A stretch of DNA of 64,000 nucleotides from a virus (lineage: Duplodnaviria > Caudoviricetes), in the IMG/VR virus record IMGVR_UViG_3300001598_000036, positions 32,001-96,000 of that record. One strand, written 5' to 3'. Below the pieces are notes generated by a model. It ran no database searches, was not told where the DNA came from, and was given only the letters and a program-made list of their open reading frames with translations. Positions within the stretch are counted from its first letter, which is position 1, and the number at the start of each line of letters is the position of its first letter. Of this stretch, positions 10,051-60,324 are shown piece by piece. Position numbers and translations under genes: made by a program.

Positions 10051-12462
10051 ATGACTACTATTAATGTTGGTAAAATTAAACCAATACGTGAAGTCGATTA
10101 TTGAACTGAAGAGGATAAAGGAGAGATTTTTAGCGATGTTACAGAATACATGGAAGATCCTTTACATATAGAAACATTTAGAGGACGTCCAGCTCAAATG
10201 CAATTTACAGATGCGGTTACTGGAGAGCCAGGAAGTCAAGTAATAGTTCAAAATTTAGGAACTGAAACACAACCTATTTTAAAATTAACTATACCTCAAG
10301 GATTAAAAGGAGAAACAGGAGATCCTTTTACTATTGATTATGTATATCATTCTATAGCAGAAATGAAAGCAGATACTAGAGAAATTCCCAATGGAAAATT
10401 TGCTATTATAGGAACTAATGAGGAATCAGTAGAAAATGGTATGTTATTCTGTAGAGATAATACTATATCCGATCCAGATTATGGTAAATGAGTATTTATT
10501 GCTGATATATCTGGCGCGCAAGGTATTCAAGGCCCGAAAGGAACTATGGAAGTTATTTCTACAGAAACTATTACTCCTGGAAGTCCCGCTAGTGTAGTTG
10601 ATGTTTCAGAAGAAGAAGGACATGCAAAATTAAAATTTTATATTCCTAAAGGTGAAAAAGGAGATCAAGGAAATGCAGGAGAAATTATTTCCGCAACTGC
10701 TTCTACTTTAGAACCTGGTAGTCCAGTTGAAATTGAATTAGGCGGAACTACTTCACAAAGAACAATGAATTTTAAAATTCCACAAGGTATCCAAGGAGAA
10801 GCCGGAGAAATTCTTAGTGCTACTGCGACCAAAATAGCACCAGATCAAAATCCTGAAATAGTACTCGGTGGAACTACTTCTCAAAGAACAATGGAATTTA
10901 AAATTCCTCAAGGTATTAAAGGAGATACTGGTCCTTTACCTACTATTTCTATTGATGGAACTACTACAACTACAGAAGAGCCTCAGGTTGAATGAATTGA
11001 AACTGCTACTGGTGGAAAATTACACTTTTGATTAAAAACTGGTCCGAAAGGAGATAAAGGAGATACTGGTAATGGATTTGTATTACATGGATTAGTTGCG
11101 ACTCCTGAAGAATTACCAGAAACAGGAAAAGATGGTGATGCTTGGGCAGTAGGTACAAAAGATTCGAATGAAATTTATATTTGAGATATAAAAGCAATTC
11201 CTAATCAATGAAGAAATATTGGCACTATGAGCAGTACTTGGAATAGTATTACTGGAAAACCTGATACTTTTCCTCCTTCTAGTCATAGTCATACAATTAT
11301 AGATTTACAAGATTCAGAAAATCCATATCATATTAAAAATTTAAAAGTAGCGCAAAATCAAATAGATAATTTTTCAAGTCATACACATATAAAAAATCAA
11401 ATTACTGATTTCGCACACAGTCATGCTAAAGGAGATATTGTTGATTTTAATCAACACGAACATACTATTTCACAAATTACTGATTTAAATACTCAATATT
11501 ATACTAAATCTGAAGTATATTCTAAAGAAGAATCAGATACTAATTATTATAATAAAGAATATTTATATACAAAATTGGAATTAGATGCAAAAATTCCTAC
11601 AGCAGAAAAAATGAAAGAGTGAGATGAAAAATCTAAGTTAACAGAAGGAACTGATTATTTAAATCCAACTCATATTCAAACAATTAATAATTTAACAAAT
11701 TATTATACTTCTACTCAAACAGATGCTGCAATTGCTTACGCTATTTCTCAAATACCTAAATTTAGTATATTAGTAGTAGATGTATTACCTAGTTTAAAAG
11801 ATGCTAGTATGACTACTTTTTATTTGCTTAAAGTTGTTGATACTTCTGGTAAAACCAGTTATGATGAATATATATGTGTTAAATTTTATACAGAACAACA
11901 AAAAACAGATTCAACTAAAACTGATACATATATTAATGAATCAATTTTTAATAGTAGTAAAACTTTATATGCTATAAAAGTAGGAGATAATTATCAAGAT
12001 TGTACTGAAGAAAGCATTTATGATCCTGGTAGTACAATATATTATAAAAATAGAAAATGAGAAAAAATTGGTAATTTATCTATTGATTTAAGTGGATATG
12101 CTACAGAAGATTGAGTGAGAAATCAAGGATATGCTTTACAAAGTGATTTAAATGAAAGTAAAACTAGAATTACTACGTTAGAAACTGAAACATGTGTTAC
12201 AAAAATACTTAAAAATTATTCTGTAGATTATACAAAATGAAATACCAGTACTACATACGCGGAATATCCTTGATATTATTCAGTCCCATTTGAGGGATGT
12301 ACTACTGATTACTATCCAGAAGTTATTTTTGATATTAATAATGATATGAGACTTTTAGCTCCTGTATCAACAACTGGAACAAATGTTGTTTATATTTATG
12401 CTAGCGAAAAACCAACTATAAATATACCAATTTCAGTAGTAAAAATTTGAAAGATGAGATAA
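10051..12462 (+). CDS. Tail fibre protein with collagen-like and His-repeat segments, 803 aa (TGA=Trp)
   Basis: Single frame through TGA; GxKGDxG repeats; HSHT/HTHI/HSHA/HEHT repeats; WEKIGNLSIDLSGYAT motif. Confidence 0.8.
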
Positions 12463-30448: not shown

Positions 30449-33400
30449 TTAATCACATTTACTCCATCCACAAGATTTACATATATTACATCCGCCTTCA
30501 AAAATTAATGGCGCTCCACAACTTGGACATTTTGGTTCCCATACTTTTTCATCATATACTACGGGATTTATTTTATACTTTATATCTTCTGAAAGTTTTA
30601 TTGACTTTTCTGATTTAGTAAAATTTTCTTTTGGTTTTAATTCTTTACCTTGAAAATCTTCCCACATTTCTTTAATTGCATATCCAATAGCCATTGGACA
30701 ACAAGAGCCTTTACTTGTATCTTTTTGTATTGCCGCACGTCTTGCATATGATGGACAAATTCCAGTTGACATAAGTTGGTCATATATATCTGTTACTGAT
30801 ATACCACCTCGCGCAGATAACGACATCATTCTTGAAAGTGCAATCATAAAATTGTTACAACCACCAGTAGAACCTTTACTAAGATATAATTCTACCAAAT
30901 CGCTACTATCTGCATCAAAAAAAGCAGTACAGTGAAGGGAACCGCATCCTGTCATAAGTTTACGCTTTAAACCAATAACATTATCGTGTGCTGATTTGAT
31001 TTCTCCTCTCTTAAATATATGAGTTTCACCAGAAATCATTTCGGTATATTCTTCTGTTTCTTCGGAATCTGCTACTAATATTGCCGCTCTCTTACATCCT
31101 GAACGGAAAATAGTAATTCCTTTCAATCCTTTTTCCCAAGCATACAAATATAAGTCGTATATTTCTTCAAGAGTAATTTCTTTTGGAAGATTAATAGTTG
31201 AACTGATAGCTGTATCTACGTGTCTTTGCATTATAGCTTGGATATCAATTCTATCTTTCCATTTTAAATCTGAAGAACAGACAAAAAAGTCAGGAAGTTC
31301 GAAATCTGCATCAGCATCTAATCCTAATATACTCTTATAATCAGTAATAGCTTTACTTTCTATATTATAACTATCTTTAAGGTTATCTGTATTTCTTGTA
31401 TAGTATAAACTAAACTCCGGTTCACATCCTCCAGTTACACCAAGCATCGTTCCTATCGAACCAGTCGGCGCGATACTAAGTAAGCTACAATTTCTTAATT
31501 TTCTATGTTTTAAATGTTTGATTTCCTCAGGAGTAAAATTGTCTTCAATAATCTTACTATCCCATATTGATGGATTGAATCCAGGAAATGCTCCTCTTTT
31601 TTCTGCTAAATCAGTATCATAAATTACTGCTGTTCTAAACATAAAGTCAAATAACATTTCTGTAAACTCTTTAGCTTCTTTAGAACCGTATGTTATTCCT
31701 AATTTAAATAACATATTAGCATATCCCATTACTCCAAGTCCAATATTTCTATACATCTTAGATGCTTTTTTCTGTTCTTTTAAAGCGTGTCTTTCAAGAT
31801 TTTCATCTATAATTGTATCAAGACCTTCTATTGCTATTTCTATTGCTTTTTCAAAAGAAGGGAAATCAAATTTAGCATCTGGTTGATATGGATTAATTAC
31901 GAATTCATTTAAGTTTAAACTACCAAGATTGCAACATCCATTTTTCATTAATGGTTGTTCGCCGCCGATACCACACTTAGTTTCCTAAGCCGCATTGCTG
32001 CGTTGTAGTCTGGACTATATCTTCCTTTATTCTATCGAAGAATAAAGGGTGCGCACTTATTTTGATAAAAATATTATTATATGTTTCTGAAACAAATCCT
32101 CGTTTTTGCAACCCTTTTCCTCTATATCCTAAATCCATTTTATATAATAGAGAAGGAAAATAATCATAAAAGTAAGTATAAATTAGAGATATTAATTGTT
32201 GTCCATCTTTAACAGATATTTGTATTCTGTATTGATTATTACGACATCGATTAATTATTTTTGTTTCAAAATGTTTGGTTATTTCTAATTCTTGTTTTAT
32301 TTTCAAATGTTCTTCATAAGTAAAATTATCAGTACAAAATTGTATTCTACGATTTTTTGCTCCTCCGTCAGTTCCAAGCCCTTTTTGAACTAATACGGTG
32401 GTTCCATCATCAGCATACCACATAGCGTATCCTAAATTAGTTAGTTTTTTAACTGTATTTAATGGGTAAATTTTTTTTCCATTATGATAAAATAGTTTTT
32501 CTAATTTATTAATATATGGATGCGGCCCTGCTATTAATTTATATGCTTTTTTATGATGAACACCTTTTTTATCGGTATATTCTGGTTCTTCATTAATATA
32601 AACCGCGCAATTAGGTAAATAACGTTTGATAAAATTAGCTTTAAAATCTATTAAATCTTTGGATATTTGATGAGAACAAAAACGATGATTGTGTATGTCT
32701 CCATCTCCCAATAAACACCCATAAAAAAAACTTCTTACTTCTGTATGATTAATTTTCATATTATTTTCGTTATACTATAGTATAACGCCTCCTTTTTTAT
32801 CAAATTAGTCTCTGAACGTTTTTCCTTTTCAGGAAACTTCGCTGCTGATTGCCCAATTTTTATATTTTTTAAACATTCAAGCTTATTCTTACGAATTACT
32901 TTGTAGTATATAAAACTTAAGGGGTTTCCAGCAATTCACGCACTTTTACATCCGCACTTAATTTACGGATTAGTAGTTTCAACTACATAATCTTTTACGT
33001 GTTCCATTAAATTATAATTTCTTAATTTATTTGTAAATAAACATCCTGGTTCTCCATAATCATATGCAGATTCAATCATTAATTCATATAATTTTCTAGG
33101 ACAAATCTCATATTCAATAGTATGTCCTTCATATTCCCTACAAATTGTATAAGTATCATAGGTATCATTTTTTAATGAGTTTCTAATTTTAAACATAAAA
33201 TCATTATCTATTTCAAGTGAAAAATTAGCTGCATTAAATTCTTCCAAATCAGTTTTCGCTGTAATAAACATTGATGCTTCTTTGTGAGTAATATCTAATG
33301 ACATCATTAATGCACCTTTTCGCGCCCCTCCTTGAGATACTCCTTGAGTAGTAGTATTAAATATTCTCATAAAAGGCAAAATTCCATCTGATACGTAGTC

Positions 33401-33754
33401 TTCTCCAACTTGTGTGCCAGATGGCCTAATCTTCGTAAGAGATATGCCTTGACCACCTTGCGCTTTATATGTAAGAGCAAGATTCGTATTTGTTTGCATT
33501 ATATCTTTAAGACTATCTTTTACGTATCCGCTTGAATAACAGTTAAACATTGAGCCTTGTCTATCAGTACCTCTATTTGAGAGCGCACGACCGCCAAATA
33601 AGAATTTTCTTTCTTCAATAAGCTGTCTTAATTTTTCATTACCGCCGCTAACTCTATCAAAAAATTCATCAAGCGTTTCGTTATGATACTGATATTTTTC
33701 TTTGAATATATCTTGTCCTACTTGATAATCGCCTAACCATTCTTGTAAATTCAT
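30449..33754 (-). CDS. nrdJ: Class II (B12-dependent) ribonucleotide reductase, spliced (exons 33754-32965, 31965-30449; 768 aa)
   Basis: Joining restores TNPCGEQPL; CNLGSLNL, RNIGLGVMG, IAPTGS motifs; C-terminal Zn ribbon CGWSKC. Confidence 0.9.
31966..32964 (-). mobile_element. Group I intron in nrdJ (999 nt)
   Basis: Exon ends in U with P1 AUCCGU/GCGGAU; intron ends in G; P7 GACUA/UAGUC; splits the TGC catalytic Cys codon. Confidence 0.9.
31977..32759 (-). CDS. Intron-encoded LAGLIDADG homing endonuclease
   Basis: FYGCLLGDG and AMWYADDG motifs; no in-frame TGA. Confidence 0.85.
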   Translation of the reverse strand: MKINHTEVRSFFYGCLLGDGDIHNHRFCSHQISKDLIDFKANFIKRYLPNCAVYINEEPEYTDKKGVHHKKAYKLIAGPHPYINKLEKLFYHNGKKIYPLNTVKKLTNLGYAMWYADDGTTVLVQKGLGTDGGAKNRRIQFCTDNFTYEEHLKIKQELEITKHFETKIINRCRNNQYRIQISVKDGQQLISLIYTYFYDYFPSLLYKMDLGYRGKGLQKRGFVSETYNNIFIKISAHPLFFDRIKEDIVQTTTQQCGLGN

Positions 33755-35288: not shown

Positions 35289-38200
35289 TTATTCAATCTC
35301 CATTCGTTCTTCTTTTGTTATTATAGTTCCATTTTCTTTTATATCTGTAATAAGTTCAACTAAATGATACGGAGTTCTACTATATTTCTTACCTACGAAC
35401 ATTTCTCCACGTCTTATTCCAGTTACAATAATTTTATTACCTCGCGCGAGCCATCCTTTTTCAAGAACGTGCTTTTTACCATCAGCTCCTTTTTCTGATA
35501 TTTGTCTATCATACTGATTAAATACCGCACCAAATATTTTCACTGTAACCACTCCTTCAAGAGTTAATAAAGTTACTATTCCTTTATTTTTATCTTTATC
35601 AAGAATAGTTCCTGCTATTCTATGAATCTTATATAAAGGAACTTGTTTGCCTTTAATAGGAATATATCTATCAAGTATTGGTTCATCTGGAAGATTAAAG
35701 AAGTTTACTACGCCGTGACTCATTAAATCTGCATTTATTAATTCGTGTTCGTGTAGATAACAACTTATAGAGTCCATTTCCCATTTACTTAAACTACCAT
35801 CACAATATTTATTCCATAAATCATTAAATAGTTTATTATTTATTGATTCTAATAATTCTTCACTATGCTCTTTAACAAAAGGTCTTAAATTATCTTTTAC
35901 TTTATCATAGTGTTTGTCCCATACAGTTTGCTTAATCTTAAAATCAAAATCGCCTTCTGCTGGATATAATTCATCTATATCATAATTCTCACTAAAAAAT
36001 CTATAACTATTATCATCTAATAAATAATAATCATCACATTTAAATTTCTTTAAATACTTATTAAAATTAAATATCTTACAATCTAATTCATACTCTTGCG
36101 GCATTAGTCCAAAATCAATTAACATCTTCATATTTTGAAGTGTTACTCTTTTCTTTTTCTCACACGCTATATCTATATATTGTGTCATAGATTCCAAGCG
36201 GTCGCCGCAGAGTTCGTCAAAAGCACCAGATTTAATTAAGTTTACCATCTGCGGCTTATTGACTTTTACTTTATTCAAAAAATCTTCTACACTATCAAAA
36301 GGTCTTTTAGCAATAATATCTTTTACTATGTCTTCTCCTATTCTTGTCATTCCACTTAATCCATATTGTATTACATTATTCTCTACATCAGGAGTAAAAG
36401 TGAAGTCTGACTTATTAATATTTGGAGATATAATCTCAATATTTTGTGATGTCATTTTACCTATTGCGGTTGCTATTTTTCCAAAGTTTGTAGTTTTAGC
36501 TTTCTTCTTTTTCTTTCCATCTTTCATTACTACAACTTCTGACGGATAGCTATCTACATCTTCTTCATCATAACCATCTACAATATCATCTTCAGAATCA
36601 TCACTACTAAAATCTTCTATTTCTTTTGATATTGGATTAAGATTTTCTTCAATTTCAACTTCAAGTTCTTCTATTTCATCGCTTTCGCCACCACCGCTAT
36701 CAGCAATAAGACAAGCACAATTCCAATAAATAATTGGATAACGATAAGCAAGATTTAATTCTTGAAGTCCAATTAATGAATATGCAAGTGTATGTGAGGC
36801 ATTGAATCCATATCCTCTACTCATTGCAATAAGTACATTCCATACATACTTACATAAATCTTCATTTAATTCTTTTTCTCTAACTGTCTTTATATATTCT
36901 TTTGTTAGTTCTTCATATGCGGCTGGATTCTTTTTTGCTATTGACTTACGAAGTTTATCTGCCCAAGTCAGATTGAATCCGCCTAATTCTGGAAGTTGTA
37001 CTAATTGCATAAACTGCTCTTGGGAGATACACAAACCATATGAAAGATTCAATACTGGCTCTAATATATCTTTTGCATCTTTGCCCAACCCATACTGCGC
37101 GAGTTCTGCATCCCAACATCTTTTATCAATTTTAAATCTTGCTAATTTTTGAAGAGGAATCTCTGCTCCTTTCTCTTGCGCCATCAATCTAATTACTGAG
37201 TTCAAAATTGCAAGTTCGTCTACTGATGTTGGCTTTAATGCTGCAATACCTTGGATACCACTTTGTTGTTCCATTTGAAACAAATTCATTACTTCGTGAT
37301 TCCAACACATATGCCACATATCTTCTGCATCTCTTTCAAGATTATATATACCAATTGTATTCTCATACATCTCTTTTAAAGTATCACCTTCAATTCTCTC
37401 ATCTTTCTTCAATAAATCCAAACAATTATGGATTCTATCAAGAGCTTCTACTGAAAGAATATCATACTTAATAAGAGAAGCATCTTCACAATCGTGTAAG
37501 TCAAATTGTGTTATAATTTCTCCTTTTGGAGAACGCATCAATCCTGTTGTGTTAGGAAACGGTTCATCTACAAATATTACTCCACCTGCGTGAACTCCAA
37601 CACGACATATTAATCCTTCTATTGCTTGTGCCACTTCCCATAAATCTGGATAGTTTTCGGTCATTTCGTGCTGGAATGATTTATTCGGCGCGAATCCATT
37701 TTCTTCATCACCATAAAATGTTTGATGAAGCGTTCTTATTTGTCCTCTATCAGATACAATCATACCGGATAGATATTGAGCTATATCATTATCAATTCCT
37801 AATCCTCTTGCCGCAGTTAATATTGCTGCTTTTGATTTTTCAGTACCAAGAGTTAATACATTTGCTACTCTATCCTCTCCATAAATCTTTCTAAAATTAT
37901 GAAGTACGTCTGCTCTGCGGCCGCCCTCGATATCTACGTCAACATCGAGAACTGATACTCTCTCTGGATTCAAAAACCTCCAGCGATACGTTTTCGTCTT
38001 TTCTCTCAAAGGATTAATTTGAGTTATTCCTAATATATATAAAAGAATAAATCCTACTCCGGAACCACGACCGCATCCTACGAGTGTTCCACTATCCCAA
38101 CAAGCATCAATTATATTCTGTAAATTAAGAAAATATGCTGACCATCTTGAACCATTTACTTCTGATGATATCCAAGTATCTTCAAGACAAGCATTTATTT

Positions 38201-39316
38201 CATTATATGTTTCTTGATTATCAAATTCTTCATCATCTTTAATTCTATCAATAATTATTTCTGCCAATCTTTTATCTTCTTCATAATCTGATAGATAAAA
38301 GTCCAAAAGTTTAGGAATATTCTTAAACCATTTATCTTTTTCTGATGTTGATATATATGATGCTTCTTTCCAATTAAGACGAGGAATATTCAGCGGTTTC
38401 ATTAATGAAAAATCTTCGCACATATCTTTTATTCTAACAATATTCTGATAAGATTTTTCTATCCATTCAGCTCCGACTACATCATCCATATATTTATGAA
38501 CTTCTTCATCAGTCATTAAATAAGTGGTCTTATAAAATGAATCTACCTCTCTATCTCCTTCTTTTGAATTGAGATATGCTTTATGTATCTTTCTATTCTC
38601 CGGTCTTAAATAATGAGCATCATTTGTTATAGTTGTCGGAAGATTTAATTCTTCTGCCAGTTCTATAATTTTTTTATTTACATAAATTTGTTCTTTATCA
38701 TTTGAAGGTTGCATCTCTAAAAAGAAATTACCATCTCCAAATAATTGACTCATTTGCTGACACCAATATTTAATTTTCTCAAATAATTTTTCGTCTTTTG
38801 TTTCTTTATAACGAAGAAGTTGAGTACCTAGCGCGCCACCTAAACAAGCAGTGCATCCAATTACGTGTCCTGGATTCGCGCCAATAACGTCAAATAAATC
38901 GCTATAATATGTTGGAACTCTTTGCATACGTCTTTCAGTGAATGCTCGCATCCACGCGCGAGTTGAAAGCTCTCTTATTTGACGATGTCCTTCAGCGTCT
39001 TTTGCATAGATGCAGAAATGAAAGTATCTATCTACTTCTTTATTAAAATTTTTAGCATTTAATCCATTTCGACATAAATAAATTTCATTTCCTAAAATTA
39101 ATTTAAATTCTGGATTCTTTTTTTTAATTTTTTTATAATATTTTTCTGCTCTTAATGAAGATGCTATTGTTTCATGTTCAGATATTCCTACAATAGTATG
39201 TCCAAGTTCTATTGCTTTATCTATTAATGTGTCTACTTTATTGATGCTGTCTCTGAGACGGAAGTTAGACCTCAAGAGAAGTCCGTGTGATTATGCAAAC
39301 TACCCGGATACTTCAT
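35289..39316 (-). CDS. dnaE: DNA polymerase III alpha (DnaE-type), interrupted after codon 14 by an 8-nt insertion containing TGA
   Basis: PHP HNHTD only in the upstream frame from ATG 39316; GRGSG, LDVDVD, HAGG, KYDIL and YGFNASH motifs in the main frame. Confidence 0.9.
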
Positions 39317-40176
39317 TAGGCCTCACCCCCTTCTAAAATATTTTCAAGAAATAAATCACTTTTAGTATTAGTTTTAATTTTAAATTCCTCCCACTCTGTC
39401 CAAGTCATATCTCGTTTTGCCAAATTTTCAAATACAGTAAGAACTTGTAAATTATCAATTTTACTAGTACCTCCTTTTGATTTAGGTATTATATGGTCTA
39501 ATGATGGTTTTGCTAAATCATAAAAAGTACTTGATAAATTATTATTTTTTTGCCAAAAATTATATATTAAATTAAATTGCTTATCATTATATAATTGTTT
39601 TAATGCTTTTTTATATTCATTAATATCACATTCTAAATTATAATAATCATTAGCAGTTCTAATTAATATTTTATGTATATATAAAAATTTTTCAAAATCA
39701 TCTTTAAATTCTTCTAAAAAATCTTCATCTAAATTATCTCTACTAGATGCTAAAAATGCTCTCATTTTTCTATTACAACCACAAGTTAATTGATTATAAT
39801 TGCCATTATCTGATAAATAAGTAAATCTAACTTGTACATTCTTTTTCCCACATCTTAAACAATCACAATACATTATAGTTCCTTTATAATTTTTATCAAT
39901 TCTTTCATTTTTAGGAACAATTCCTGTAATATATAATTGTCCTTTTGTTAATCCTATATAATCTTTTGGTTGTTGTTTTTGACTTTTTAATTTTTTAATA
40001 TATTCTTCGCTATTAATATATGTTTTAAATTCATCAAAATTATAATCATATTTATTATTAGTATTAATAATAGCAGTAACTTTTCCATCTTTAATCCATT
40101 TCGACATAGTACTACGTGGAAAATCTTTTGCATAAATACTTTTATAATAATCATTAATTTCTTTCCAAGTTGCCAT
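39316..40176 (-). CDS. Free-standing HNH homing endonuclease
   Basis: PSLDHIIPKSKGG..IDNLQVL...N..K motif; CDC..CG segment; stop overlaps dnaE ATG. Confidence 0.85.
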   Translation of the reverse strand: MATWKEINDYYKSIYAKDFPRSTMSKWIKDGKVTAIINTNNKYDYNFDEFKTYINSEEYIKKLKSQKQQPKDYIGLTKGQLYITGIVPKNERIDKNYKGTIMYCDCLRCGKKNVQVRFTYLSDNGNYNQLTCGCNRKMRAFLASSRDNLDEDFLEEFKDDFEKFLYIHKILIRTANDYYNLECDINEYKKALKQLYNDKQFNLIYNFWQKNNNLSSTFYDLAKPSLDHIIPKSKGGTSKIDNLQVLTVFENLAKRDMTWTEWEEFKIKTNTKSDLFLENILEGGEA

Positions 40177-40565: not shown

Positions 40566-43231
40566 CTAAAATACTAATAAATCATTAACTAATTCATAAC
40601 TATCTATAAATATCTGCGGCGTCACTCGACCTCCCCATTCGTTAAGATTAGCTCTACCAATAACTTCTAAATTCATTTCATCTTTTCCAGTTAATTCTTC
40701 AATCATATCTTTTGCGTGAAATTTCATATATGCTATTCCACCATATGTAATCTTTAATGTATCTTTTCTTGCGCCCATTATTTGAATATTAGTCTGATTT
40801 ACTTTGATATTCTTTACATAAATCATTGGCTCTGGAACATTAGTTCCCCAAATTCCTTTATAGTTATCTACATCTTTAATTAAATCTTCTAAATCATCGT
40901 CTGCGGCGTTTCGTATAAAATGTACGTCATATACTGATTCATTAAAGTCCATATCTTTGAGTATTTCATTAGCATAATTATGAAGTGAATCTAAATTATC
41001 ATCTTTAATTGATATGCCTGCTGCGTTATCATGCGTGATTCTTATAGTTTCCTATAAGCCTGACTATTTTTTACTCCTATAAAGGAGAACACCCATTTCA
41101 AACTGCGTACCAATAGCAGTCTTACTCTTCAAAATGAAGATAGTCGATACAGGTTTCTTGACTTAATATATTATAATTATATTCTTTGTTATTTCTAATT
41201 GGATATTTTAGACGTTCATCAAAATGATTTTGTCCTTGATTAATCATTTTTGCACTACTGCGTCCCCATCCAACTAATGCGCCTAATTGATTTAATGGAA
41301 TATCTGAAGAGCAACATTTCCATTGAATATATAAGGCTTTGTAATTATCTAAAACTTTTTCTTGAGGACGCAATGGATATATCAAATTATCTTGTCTCCA
41401 TGATGTTCCCTCATTAATGTGTCTAATAATATCATGTGTAATTTTATTATTATGTATAATTGTTTTTCTTGGTATTTTCCAATCTAACAATTGCTTAATA
41501 ATATTATTTGCTATATCAGAAGAAATTTTAGATGCTGGGTTTAGTTCTCCATTATAGTGTGGCGGCTCTTCTCCGCCTTGTGCAATATTATATCCATATG
41601 GAACCAAGCTATTATATAATTGGATAAATTCTTTTTCTTTTTCATTATAGTCCTCATACCAACCTAATATTTCAAATGAAAAATTTTGTTTTCCATATTT
41701 TACTAATGCTTTATGAATTAATGATTGGTATTTTTCGTTTTTAACAAGATGTTGTTGAAAACGTTTACTTGGATCAATAGATTGTCCTATATAAATTTTA
41801 TGATTTATAAGATTTTCAATTTTATAAATTGCTTTTTTCATATTTCCTCTTTTCCGTTAAGATTATTATTAAGTCAAGTTTCCCACGAGATTACCATATC
41901 TATGTAGACTTAGGTTTCCTCGTTAGCCACAATTGTGACCCCACTGGTTAGTGGAAAAGGTGTTATGGGCCATGGTCTTAACCCTGAACATATTCACATA
42001 ATTTACTATCCGTCAGTAATTGTTTAAAGGAAAATAATCCACTATTATTGAGTCCACGAATACTTCCTCTATCAAATCCTTCTCCATTTAATCTTGCTAC
42101 AATAGTTGGCTTTTTATACTTTGCCGCGAGCTTCATAGCAATTAATCCATTTAATACAGGAGGAAAATCTTCTTCATCAAGTCTTACAAAAAGAATTTTA
42201 TTTTCAAGCAAATCATATTTAAATATTTTTACTTCGAGTTCTTCTACTGCTTTATCCATCGCTTTATTTTGATGCGCGCGAGCATTAGTACATTCTCTCG
42301 CTGATTCAATAGCAAGAAGTTCATCTGTTCCTTTTGCGCCACGCTTATTACTTGGGACAATTCTTTTTCCATCTATAAAAGCACCAAAAAGTCTTTCTTT
42401 TTCTTCCATTGTACCTACACGAATCATTGCATTAATTAGCGGAACGATATAAAATGCTACGCTGATTGGATTTACTTCGCCGCCCATTGAATATGACTGC
42501 TTTTCAATAAGTGATTTAAAAAAGAAATTTGATACATTTTCAAAACCTTTTTTAATAATATATCTATTTTCAATATTTAAAAGACTTCCCATATCGCCAT
42601 CTATACCGAGGGCTGCCAAGTCGATAAAATCATCAGCATGAGTACATCCGTATGTTTTATCTATATATCTGCAAAATTGATATACAATTCCAGCTCCAGT
42701 TAAGTCTTTATTTTTATATTTTTCGCTTAATTGATTATTAATTATATAAGTATTATCACTAATTGGAACATCTGTTAAATGATGGTCTAATACTAAACAA
42801 GGAATATGTAATTTTTTTAATCTTTCATGATAATCATAATCATTACTACTTGAGTCTGGACATATTACTAATCCGTAATCTGAATGTTCTTCTATCCAAT
42901 CAATATGGTCTTCAAGACCGTGTTGTTTTCCTTCGTGTAATCTATAATCAATTTCTATTGAAGGATATAATTTTTTTAGATATAAATATATAATCGCTGC
43001 TGATGTAAATCCATCCACATCGCTATCAACAATAAGCAATAATTTTTCATTATTTTCGCATTTATATACTAATAATTCTGCGCCACCTTGTATATTATCT
43101 AAATCAGCAGGATCTTGTATATCTGATGGTAATGGATTTAGATATTGATTAATATTATCTATACCATAACTATGTAGTAGATTTTCTATATAATTTTCTG
43201 TAAAATTTTCATTAACTAAATGTGCTTTCAT
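40566..43231 (-). CDS. recJ: RecJ-like ssDNA exonuclease, spliced (exons 43231-41981, 41033-40566; 572 aa)
   Basis: DSDVDG, LDHH, GSIR motifs; joining restores QGHDNAAG (DHHA1). Confidence 0.88.
41034..41980 (-). mobile_element. Group I intron in recJ (947 nt)
   Basis: P1 GGGU/GCCC, terminal G, P7 GACUA/UAGUC. Confidence 0.88.
41122..41841 (-). CDS. Intron-encoded GIY-YIG homing endonuclease
   Basis: AIYKIEN...YIGQS...GYN motif; no in-frame TGA. Confidence 0.85.
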   Translation of the reverse strand: MKKAIYKIENLINHKIYIGQSIDPSKRFQQHLVKNEKYQSLIHKALVKYGKQNFSFEILGWYEDYNEKEKEFIQLYNSLVPYGYNIAQGGEEPPHYNGELNPASKISSDIANNIIKQLLDWKIPRKTIIHNNKITHDIIRHINEGTSWRQDNLIYPLRPQEKVLDNYKALYIQWKCCSSDIPLNQLGALVGWGRSSAKMINQGQNHFDERLKYPIRNNKEYNYNILSQETCIDYLHFEE

Positions 43232-49963: not shown

Positions 49964-52900
49964 TTAAAATTTAGAAATTCCTACTATTTTATCTTTTTCT
50001 GAAATTTTCATTGAGCGTGTTCCTACTGCTCCTCTACCTAATAGAGAAATTTCATTTAACTTAAGTTTGATTTGAGTTTTACTTGCTACGATTACTATTG
50101 ATGATTCGTTAGTAATAGGTAGGAAATCTACTAATTTTTCTTCTTTTGCTTTATGGAGTTTTACTCCTTTGGTGTTTAAATTAGTAGTTGATATGTCGTT
50201 GGCGGCCGACCGTTTAATATAGCCGTCGCTAGTGATTGAAACATACTCTCGTGTTTCCGCTGGAATAGCATCGGCCGCAACCAACGTATCTCCTGCGTTA
50301 AGCTTCATTCCAATTCTTCCTTTGGCTACTCTGCCGAGAGGGCGAATATCTTTTGTTTCAACTACGATGAATTGACCTTCTGCTGAAAGCATACCAATCT
50401 TTTCTTCGTTTATGAAGAGAACGCTACATATTTCATCATTAGCAGCCAATTCCATTGCTTTTACTCCGCCTTTGCGGTTTGTATTATATTCGCTGATTAA
50501 ACTCTTTTTAATCATTCCTTGTTTAGTGCAGAATACGATATACTTCTTTGAGTTCTTCTTATCAATCGAAGTAAGCGCGCATACTACATCGGAATCTATA
50601 TTAGTAAATGATTCAATTGGAATCTTTTCTCCAATAGGAAGGTTCTTCATAGGACAGTTAAATACATTTCCTCGTTTAGTAAACATCAGCATTATCTGTG
50701 TATTTGCGCCGGATGTTGTTGATACGATGTATTCACCTTTATTGAGTTTAATCTTTGAACCTACATTACCACGAGTCTGTGTATAGAGTGAAGATATTTC
50801 TGATACTATCAGATTATTCATATTAGTTAATGAAACTTGATATGCTTTTTCTTCTGTTGGTTCATCATCTTCGTTCTCTATATTGAGAATACGTGTACGG
50901 CGCGCGTCTCCAAATTTTGTAGCAACTTCTTTCAGTCCTTTTTCAATTTCTGCTTTAAGAAGTTTCTCATCATTTAGAATCGCTTTTAAATCTGATATTA
51001 ATTGAAGTAAATCAACTTTTTCTTTTTCGAGTTTCTGTACTTCCAAATGTGCTAGTCTACTCAATTTCATATCAAGGACTGCTTTTGCTTGCGCCGCATC
51101 AAGTAAAAACTTGTAGCATAAATTTTTAGCAGCGGCCGCAGTCGACGTAGAACTCTTAATTGTATCTACGACTTCATTAATTGATGCCATACAAATCAAT
51201 AATCCTTCTACGATATGAAGTCTTTCTTCTGCTTTCTTAATATCAAATTCATATCCTCTAGTATATACCTCAATTTCGTGATTGATATGCGCTTGCAAAG
51301 CCTCTTTCCAAGAAAATACTCTTGGAAAGCGACCATTCTCAAGCATTGTCATATTAATACCATAGTGGTATTGAAGGGAGGTATTTTTATAAAGAAAACG
51401 CAGAACTCTATCAGGATTTGCGTTCTTTTTTAAATAAATTTTTATCAGTGGCGTTTCGCCCGTTAAATCGTTGAATCTATCTACTCCTGGATTTTCATCA
51501 TCTTCAAGTATTGATTCTAATTCTTTACAAATAGTATTAGTATAAACCGAATAAGGAATTTCAGTAACTACTAAACACTTATCTTTTGAATTATAATCTA
51601 CAACAGCACGTAACTTACACGCTTTACCATATCCATCTTTTAATGAATCTTTTACTTCGTTCTCATTTAAAAGCATCGCGCCAGTTGGAAAGTCGGGCGC
51701 ACAATAAATATCATCAAAACTACAATCTGGATTCCAAAGCAAATGAATTAACGCATTATTCACTTCAGTAAGATTAAATCCTGGAATTGATGAAGCTGCA
51801 CCAACCGTGGTGCTCCATTATTTCTAATGGCACAGACTATATCTTAATTATTTAATATATATTAAATAACGATTACCGTTTCGAACTATGTACCAATAAT
51901 AGTCCTACTCTCCCGTTCCGGAGATAGTCGTTACAGACTTTTTAGAGCCGCGATTTGGATAAAAGTTTCGTATTGGATATTTTTCATTATTTTGTTTATA
52001 TCTTTTACCTTTATTAATATCGCTAATTGTATCATAACTACAGTTAAAATGTTTTCCTATTTCTTCTAATGTATAATTTGGATTTAATAATTCATTCTTT
52101 ATTTGTTGTATTTCTTCTTGTGTTAATCTTATACTTTTTCTTGTTTTTCTTAAAGGAAAAGATAAAGAAATATTTTTACAATATGGATGTTTACCAGTAT
52201 TAATATTAGTAATAGTTGAAACTCCTATACCAGTAATATTACTAATTTCTTGTCTTGATTTATTAGTAGTGTTTAATAAAAATATTGCCTGTTCTAATTG
52301 TTCATTAGAAAAACTATTATGTTTTTCAGTATATTCTTGTTTACCTTGTCCAAGTCTAATTGGATAAGTTAATGAGGAATTATAATATGTTTTTCCTTGA
52401 TTAATTCTACCAATAGTATCTGGATGTACATTGTAAATATTACTAATATATACATTACTATATTGTTTTTCCAATAAAGAAATAATATTATTTATATCAT
52501 CTTGTGAAAATTTGGAAGCACTATTATTAACACCATAATCCGCTCCATCTCCACCTTCTGAAATATTATAACCATATTCTGAATTATTAGAGTGTTTAAG
52601 ATTGATAAAATATTTTTCTAATTCACACTGCTCTTTAAAATTATATTGTTCTTGATTATATAATATATCAATATCTATATCCTCATAAGAATTAAAATAT
52701 TTTTTTAAAGCAGATTGACATAAAGTATAATCAATTTTAGAATAATGTTCTCAAATTCTATGTTTAATATCTATTGAGCGTCCAATATAAATTTTATTAT
52801 TAGGAAAATTAATTTGATAAATACCACTTATATGTGGTAAAAGTTCTGTATATTTCATGATACTACCTCTCTAAAATTTCCACGGAATTGCCTTCTATTT

Positions 52901-60027: not shown

Positions 60028-60324
60028 AGGGGTGGCTGTAAGACAGGGGCTGGTCTTCAACCAGTTTAGGATTGTCTAAATAATTGGTGCTTTATATTGG
60101 AAACTTTATAAATGTACGCCGCTAATTCGGGGAAGGCTAAGTTTTTTAATATGCTAATCCCGAGCTAGGACGCAATTCGCGACCGAGTGTAGAGACTTTA
60201 CACGGCGCGCCTAAGTCATAAGATATGGCGAAGAGAAAGTCCAGACTACAAACAGAAATGGCTATGAAAATAGTAGTAGTAAGCAAAACCAATCTACGAG
60301 GAGCGTTACCTTGCACCCCTGCCA
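60028..60324 (+). tRNA. Intron-containing tRNA-Trp, predicted anticodon UCA (opal suppressor); exons 60028-60057 and 60284-60324
   Basis: Perfect acceptor stem AGGGGTG/CACCCCT, G73, encoded CCA; spliced arm TGGT-CT-TCA-AA-ACCA; 5-bp T stem; resembles the Bacillus-type tRNA-Trp frame. Confidence 0.8.
60058..60283 (+). mobile_element. ORF-less group I intron (226 nt) in the tRNA anticodon
   Basis: P AAUUCGGGGAA / Q AAUCCCGAGC, P3 CGCCG/CGGCG, R GUAGAGACUUU, S AAGAGAAAGUCC (P7 GACUU/AAGUC), terminal G. Confidence 0.88.

Follow-up and report, generated by a model that had tools for sequence, protein, structure and literature searches.

The interrupted dnaE gene and its relatives

The window analysed here, a stretch of 64,000 nucleotides of the virus record IMGVR_UViG_3300001598_000036 (126,454 bp; Duplodnaviria, Caudoviricetes), carries on its minus strand a dnaE gene for the alpha subunit of DNA polymerase III (Pol III alpha) that is interrupted by a coding gap of 8 nt close to its start codon. 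The part of the gene before the gap, named mini-exon 1 (39275..39316, minus strand), starts at the ATG at 39316-39314, comprises 14 codons (MKYPGSLHNHTDFS) that include motif I (HxH) of the PHP domain and ends in a TCT codon at 39277-39275, considered here as the take-off codon. The gap (39267..39274, minus strand) consists of TGA (39274-39272), GG (39271-39270) and a second TCT (39269-39267), considered as the landing codon, and is not present in uninterrupted relatives. The main body of dnaE (35289..39266, minus strand), delimited by Pfam domains and lists of open reading frames (ORFs), resumes at AAC 39266 with the residues NFRLRDS and is free of in-frame TGA; when the minus strand is read, its frame is -1/+2 relative to that of the ATG.

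The long ORF that extends from TTG 39275 to 35289 codes for 1328 aa with matches to the Pfam families PHP, DNA_pol3_alpha, finger and HHH_6, and this body of 1328 codons is intact. Its PHP match begins at profile position 4 and lacks the HxH residues, which are provided by the mini-exon. The sequence LHNHTDFS of an uninterrupted relative (L166) aligns to LHQHTQFS at the start of the PHP domain of Taq Pol III alpha (2hpi), and therefore the mini-exon encodes PHP motif I. The interrupted dnaE accounts for the single PF07733 match (Pol III alpha) of the 126-kb genome, and no family A polymerase (PolA) was found in a search of the same genome.

When the 8 nt at 39274-39267 are left out, the translation becomes HNHTDFSNFRLRDS, the N-terminus of at least 90 uninterrupted relatives. 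Decoding of the UGA as Trp leads instead into a dead end in frame 0 (39233..39274, minus strand), with 12 more codons (W-GLTSVSETASIK) before the TAG at 39235-39233 and a peptide of 27 residues in all. The initial annotation of this sequence had given the coordinates of the frame break, the arithmetic of the 8-nt removal, the end of frame 0 at TAG 39233-39235 and the residues L-R-S that a -1 shift would add, and all of these were found correct when the minus strand was read again.

A gene for an HNH homing endonuclease of 286 aa (39316..40176, minus strand; Pfam HNH, E=1.8e-5) lies directly upstream, and its TAA (39318-39316) overlaps the dnaE ATG (TAATG). The 3' end of this gene contains, by sequence reading, the Shine-Dalgarno-like element GGGGGTGAGG (39321..39330, minus strand) 5' of the ATG, with GGAGGTGATG elements as its counterparts in related cassettes. 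Around the gap a small hairpin, GGACUUC-UCUU-GAGGUCU (39267..39284, minus strand), is predicted, whose loop holds the take-off UCU and whose 3' arm holds the UGA and the landing UCU; a function for it may only be supposed.

A first scan retrieved 40 related dnaE loci (54-74% identity) and a profile scan 80 more, out of more than 546 relatives; with those added by pattern scans, about 125 related dnaE loci were compared. The gene is uninterrupted in 35 of the 40 loci of the first scan and in 57 of the 80 of the profile scan, the other 23 of the latter being interrupted. Alignment with homologous phage dnaE genes, the check that the initial annotation suggested for the 8-nt insertion, revealed M..YPGSLHNHT(D)(F)SN(F)RLRD(S) as the N-terminus in the 35 uninterrupted loci of the first scan, and the part from LHNHT to RLRD also in the 57 of the profile scan; this equals the product of the 8-nt deletion.

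About 30 distinct gap variants were found among these loci, with lengths of 4, 5, 6, 7, 8, 9, 10, 11 and 12 nt, distributed over the same three sites of PHP motif I and in all three frames (those of 6, 9 and 12 nt are in frame). At the Ser site, after the serine of TDFSN, the variants are TCT TAG TCT and TCT TAG TCA (6 nt), TCT TAG T TCT (7 nt), TCT TGA GG TCT (that of the window), TCT TGA AG TCT, TCT TAG CG TCA/TCG and TCG TAG CA TCA (8 nt), TCT TAG GTGA TCC (10 nt) and TCT TAG CGAAA TCT (11 nt). At the Asn site, after the first two residues of HNH, they are AAT-TAGC (4 nt), AAT-TAAAC (5 nt), AAT TAG G AAC and AAT TAG G AGC (7 nt), AAC TGA GG AAC and AAT TAG GG AGC (8 nt), AAC TGA GGA AAC (9 nt) and AAC TAG GGTG AAC (10 nt). 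The His site, between LH and N, shows CAT TGA CC CAA and CAT TAG TT CAA (8 nt) and CAT TAG TTTATT CAT (12 nt). Every variant found has a stop (TAG, TGA or TAA) immediately after its take-off codon and a landing codon that is either the take-off codon itself, a synonym of it or near-cognate to it, and its hop product restores LHNHTxxSNxxLRD. The exact or synonymous pairs are TCT/TCT, TCT/TCA, TCT/TCC, TCT/TCG, TCG/TCA, AAY/AAC and CAT/CAT, and the near matches are AAT/AGC and CAT/CAA. Two of the loci, L168 (8 nt) and L173 (9 nt), differ by a single base within the gap.

The codons of the mini-exon point to a clear purifying selection. Across nine Ser-site variants, 182 codon differences in the mini-exon were synonymous and 57 non-synonymous, and the mini-exons of the window and of L169 differ by 8 synonymous and 0 non-synonymous changes. 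The His-Asn-His residues of motif I are invariant in all genes, gap-bearing and gap-less. The take-off serine is encoded by TCT in the nine Ser-site variants of the first set (9/9), while the serine at this position in 78 distinct uninterrupted genes is TCT in 2 and AGY in 51; as an internal control, the other serine, four codons into the same mini-exon, is encoded by four different codons.

The window belongs to a metagenome-derived record, which would be the ground for regarding the gap as an assembly or sequencing artefact, or the gene as dead; either is hardly credible. The 11-nt sequence TCTTGAGGTCT (TCT-TGA-GG-TCT) is identical in independent contigs from other samples (L043, L045 and L297), in which a homologous HNH gene also adjoins it, and the 12 codons that precede it show 7-8 synonymous and 0 non-synonymous changes relative to the window. 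Since the element recurs in independent contigs with synonymously diverged flanks, an assembly error is excluded. A further locus, L172, has the gap TGA-AG-TCT, and metagenome contigs yielded no near-identical allele of the window when searched for an exact 31-nt match. Related gaps are also present in complete genomes with direct terminal repeats (DTR) in which dnaE is the only polymerase gene, and this, together with the intact body and the selection on the mini-exon, speaks against a dead gene. The gap in dnaE is confirmed as real.

Proposed translation across the gap

Full-length DnaE is probably made by a short translational bypass, with an estimated probability of about 0.75 on the basis of the sequence comparisons. 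The ribosome would pause with peptidyl-tRNA-Ser on UCU (codon 14) and the UGA in the A site, the tRNA would unpair and the mRNA would slide by 8 nt. This UCU-to-UCU hop over UGAGG would compete with release factor 2 (RF2), and decoding would then pick up at AAC to produce ...HNHTDFS-NFRLRDS..., the conserved PHP motif I. Because gaps of 4-12 nt occupy all three frames, no single frameshift, read-through or re-initiation fits the set, and a frame-independent re-pairing of the P-site tRNA, which fits all gap variants, appears strongly supported. A matched UCU/UCU hop beside the stop had already been proposed in the initial annotation, and this part of the proposal is sustained by the ~30 variants in all frames; the regulation as an OFF switch that accompanied it is not, as considered in the last section.

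A programmed -1 (or +2) frameshift at UCU-UGA, with ...TDFS-LRS-NFRLRD... as product and three inserted residues, would agree with the downstream frame, which is -1 relative to the ATG frame, with the A-site stop, a known stimulator of shifting in prfB, and with the hairpin that can be drawn nearby. It is very improbable, however, as a slippery heptamer X XXY YYZ is absent, the sequences being C TTC TCT TGA in the window and T TTT TCT TGA in L043, and the codon onto which the Ser tRNA would slip is not conserved (CUC in the window and UUC in L043). A single shift cannot serve all the relatives, with gaps of 4-12 nt in three frames and the pair of 8 and 9 nt, and a +1 shift at the Asn site would place residues within the H-x-H motif.

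After termination at the UGA, ribosomes could also re-initiate at TTG 39275, which overlaps it, and make a DnaE devoid of PHP motif I, the 14-residue peptide possibly being discarded. A TTG overlaps the stop at L043 and L172 as well as in the window, and the PHP domains of some bacterial DnaE proteins are catalytically inactive. This route is nevertheless quite unlikely: a Shine-Dalgarno-like sequence is absent 5-10 nt before the TTG, most of the other gap variants have no start codon of the downstream frame near the stop, and neither the purifying selection on the mini-exon nor its invariant His-Asn-His residues would be expected of a segment that stays separate from the protein.

Several points weigh against the bypass. 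The unstimulated stop-hops that are known are inefficient, at about 1%. The nascent chain at take-off has only 14 residues, and a nascent-peptide signal such as that of bacteriophage T4 gene 60 is therefore unlikely. A conserved stimulatory structure was sought by folding the window, L043 and the Asn-site loci and none was found: the 7-bp hairpin of the window is no more stable than shuffled sequences (z=-0.6), L043 prefers a different hairpin of 12 bp (z=-3.2) and the Asn-site loci are without hairpin. In the window variant, the TTG that overlaps the TGA (TTGA) could allow termination-reinitiation. Some landing codons are imperfect (AGC for Asn, CAA for His), which implies either less strict pairing than in gene 60 or a contribution from another mechanism. 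A conserved hairpin or a Shine-Dalgarno-like element as a general stimulator has been rejected, since neither recurs consistently among the variants; bases resembling GAGG follow the stop in many of them but not in all.

Homing endonuclease genes and known bypass systems

The window HNH protein is 45-50% identical, over ~215 aa, to the products of ~210-aa HNH genes that abut dnaE at L043/L169, L158, L160, L188 and L227, and all of these loci have Ser-site gaps. Considering full-length relatives, genes of this type adjoin dnaE only at Ser-site gaps (window, L043/L045/L169, L158, L160/L161, L188 and L227). A search for related loci with the window HNH protein yielded one truncated relative only, the others having come from the dnaE scans. 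GIY-YIG genes of the L024 type adjoin dnaE only at Asn-site loci (L024/25, L006, L019, L173 and L193) or at the His-site locus L217, and a different family, GIY-YIG with NUMOD1, adjoins uninterrupted dnaE genes. In L222, L226, L228, L235, L236 and L159, the gene of this latter family overlaps the start of the uninterrupted dnaE, which has an unusual N-terminal extension (..MDIIGNT.NK..).

According to a quick tree of DnaE proteins, the 7-nt gap occurs in at least five well-supported clades, each of them with gap-less sisters as well, and the window and L043 are separated by the gap-less L001/L004/L005. The GIY-YIG gene has been lost in L090, L085 and L056, where the gap and the mini-exon persist along with ~45 nt from the 3' end of that gene. 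The best explanation for these distributions is that the 8-nt gap came with, or is maintained by, the upstream HNH homing endonuclease gene. By breaking the endonuclease target in the conserved motif-I DNA, the gap would make the carrier allele immune to its own nuclease; this protection is suggested by the strict pairing of endonuclease family and gap site and by the analogy with MobA and gene 60 of T4. The initial annotation proposed a gap of hop type, a reading that is supported, with no mention of the adjoining HNH gene (40176-39316) or of a homing-endonuclease cassette.

In T4 gene 60, as these sources outline it, a 50-nt translational bypass lies in an element of the homing endonuclease MobA (HNH) (Huang 1988; Bonocora 2011, cited in PMC5009743; Manning & Atkins, 10.1101/2022.08.31.505936), and the gap protects its carrier from MobA and outlives the nuclease (10.1101/2022.08.31.505936). 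The dnaE element shares with gene 60 a coding gap in an essential replication gene, a take-off codon followed by a stop and a matching landing codon, a homing endonuclease gene just upstream, a patchy distribution of mobile-element type and a gap that outlasts the loss of the endonuclease, whose type can be swapped (HNH or GIY-YIG). Unlike gene 60, the dnaE gaps are of 4-12 nt (8 in the window) instead of 50 nt, affect dnaE instead of a topoisomerase II gene and lie in a host gene that is not split into two ORFs, with the HNH gene 5' of its start codon. Take-off at codon 11-16 leaves no room for a nascent-peptide signal, and the conserved take-off stem-loop or forward-slippage barrier was not found at the dnaE gaps. 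No sequence homology between the two cassettes is seen or expected, and protection from the nuclease is in dnaE a presumption. The dnaE element is consequently an analogue of the MobA element and not a member, as it resides in a different, unsplit host gene and has a gap of 8 nt and not 50.

Synthetic stop-hops, with matched codons around a stop, work in Escherichia coli, as PMC5009743 reports them (Weiss, Dunn, Atkins & Gesteland 1987, cited therein). The dnaE gaps resemble them in the matched codons that flank the stop, the short distance (+5, +6 and similar) and the frame-independent re-pairing of the P-site tRNA, and the in-frame variants (TCT TAG TCT) have their exact architecture. In contrast to these engineered, low-efficiency constructs, the dnaE design is a natural one, repeated in many phages in the only polymerase gene that they have. 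No natural (in-frame) stop-hop was known according to PMC5009743, and shorter counterparts of bypassing had long been expected.

The byp elements of Magnusiomyces capitatus mitochondria, of 27-55 nt and similar to GC clusters (Lang 2014; Nosek 2015, as cited), are, as summarised there, also numerous short mobile inserts in essential genes, with matched take-off and landing codons beside a slow-to-decode codon. They differ in their location in a eukaryotic organelle and, in the passages that describe them, appear without an endonuclease partner, whereas the dnaE gaps are of 4-12 nt, begin with a stop, are phage-borne and are linked to endonucleases. A likeness exists too with the +1 frameshift of prfB (RF2) at CUU UGA, where an A-site UGA awaiting RF2 drives re-pairing of the P-site tRNA and Shine-Dalgarno-like bases (GAGG in dnaE) are nearby; however, the prfB shift is an overlapping one of one nucleotide with the Shine-Dalgarno sequence 3 nt upstream, and in dnaE the tRNA would move 8 nt to a non-overlapping codon with the Shine-Dalgarno-like bases inside the gap. 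A literature search for short endonuclease-linked gaps in phage dnaE found no description of them.

Essentially two systems of natural, utilised bypassing are known, namely gene 60 of T4 and its homologues, and a single lineage of yeast mitochondria. A minimal bypass (take-off codon, stop, 0-6 nt and landing codon) would here recur across a large group of phages from rumen and gut, in the only gene that they have for a replicative polymerase, and its dozens of natural gap variants constitute a ready-made mutational series. If this is true, hopping would be efficient enough for an essential enzyme without the elaborate signals of gene 60; there would be a second, independent example of a homing endonuclease whose own allele is immunised by damage that translation then repairs; and many dnaE genes that appear frameshifted or truncated in phage annotations would be accounted for.

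The replication module of the window is crowded with endonuclease genes (HNH, GIY-YIG and LAGLIDADG). A RecJ-like gene (40566-43231, minus strand) appears to be in two parts, a DHH part at 41978-43231 and a RecJ_OB part at 40566-40952, with a free-standing GIY-YIG gene (41122-41841) between them; in relatives such as L024 it forms a single unbroken ORF longer than 544 aa. The gene for the large subunit of ribonucleotide reductase (30449-33754, minus strand) is likewise in pieces (32963-33754 and 30449-31948), and the LAGLIDADG gene between them (31977-32759) could correspond to an intron or to a split gene. Larger insertions in dnaE itself are present in L009, L012 and L040 (codons ~437-556), with GIY-YIG-like coding sequence inside those of L012 and L040, which could be introns or endonuclease inserts. 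The dnaE of the relative G007 is a continuous frame of 1640 aa with a split polymerase domain, which an intein may explain.

Genetic code of the gap-bearing phages

The late genes of the window phage read TGA as Trp: the coverage by long ORFs increases from 0.57 to 0.80 when TGA is so decoded, and these codons align mostly to W in relatives. The replication genes have no in-frame TGA. ARAGORN, run on the window and on the 126-kb genome, found no suppressor tRNA or tRNA(UCA). A group I intron (60064-60265, plus strand; Rfam RF00028, 56.4 bits) was detected within the region 60028-60324, and ARAGORN called no tRNA on trial-spliced joins around it, the D and T arms looking atypical. A stop-codon-recoding lytic switch of phages has reportedly been described by Borges et al. 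in 2022.

A role of the gap as an OFF switch tied to UGA decoding had been proposed in the initial annotation, and as the reason for the gap it is not borne out by the relatives. DnaE would be produced by hopping while the UGA is an unread stop and would be shut off when a UGA-reading tRNA-Trp appears late. Besides the distribution of TGA between late and replication genes, the 27-residue dead end reached by read-through would suit such a switch, as would the group I intron if it interrupts a candidate tRNA(UCA), one that ARAGORN could not confirm even with trial splicing.

The genetic code was typed for 12 gap-bearing genomes by ORF statistics of whole contigs. The genome of the window (G000), with TGA in the gap, is TGA-recoded; G001, G002, G007 and G012, with TAG, and G010, with TAA, are TAG-recoded; and a standard code is used by G003 and G008, which have TGA gaps, and by G005, G006, G009 and G011, which have TAG gaps. 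The gap stop is the recoded stop in five of the six recoded phages typed, a proportion without significance in view of the high frequency of TAG gaps (estimated p ~0.16), the cases moreover not being independent. Among the 12 genomes, no coupling of the gap stop to the recoded stop of the phage was found: the same TGA cassette as in the window is carried by the standard-code G003 and G008, TAG gaps by four more standard-code phages and a TAA gap by the TAG-recoded G010. A rule by which gap stop and recoded stop would always coincide was discarded when nine more genomes were considered, and the assignment of G003 as TGA-recoded was also rejected, its 2010-aa tail-gene homologue being open in the standard code. 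A search for late proteins in the genomes of relatives with the 972-aa ORF gave no match.

Two TAG-recoded relatives have an in-frame TAG within dnaE at a conserved Gln that is CAG in their sisters (codon 663 in L020 and codon 145 in L007). Because of these codons both need a suppressor to make DnaE, and the early genes of TAG-recoded relatives are not strictly free of the recoded stop; this is opposed to a switch that turns DnaE off when suppression begins. Since the gap, including the TGA cassette of the window, occurs without recoding, the switch is not the reason for the existence of the gap, and as an account of the gap it is doubtful. The same low confidence applies to its form in the window phage, where the gap UGA would be the only in-frame UGA that ribosomes encounter in the replication module: a putative tRNA(UCA), once spliced and charged, would send ribosomes into the dead-end frame and turn DnaE off, so that an immunity gap would have been co-opted as a timer tied to the change of code. 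A switch arising as a side effect in this phage with TGA read as Trp is possible. In recoded phages such as this one, if the bypass is true, hopping, release factor and suppressor tRNA would compete directly at one codon.

Two further observations concern decoding in these genomes. In the TAG-recoded G007 (contig of L171), ARAGORN detected at 12177-12251 a tRNA with the anticodon UUA, an ochre suppressor, besides a tRNA(CUA). In the window, a gyrA-like ORF (49964-52858, minus strand) begins at position 161 of the DNA_topoisoIV profile; its N-terminal part may correspond to the upstream ORF 51905-52474, which reaches 52858 if one TGA is read, and it is possibly a split or recoded replication gene.

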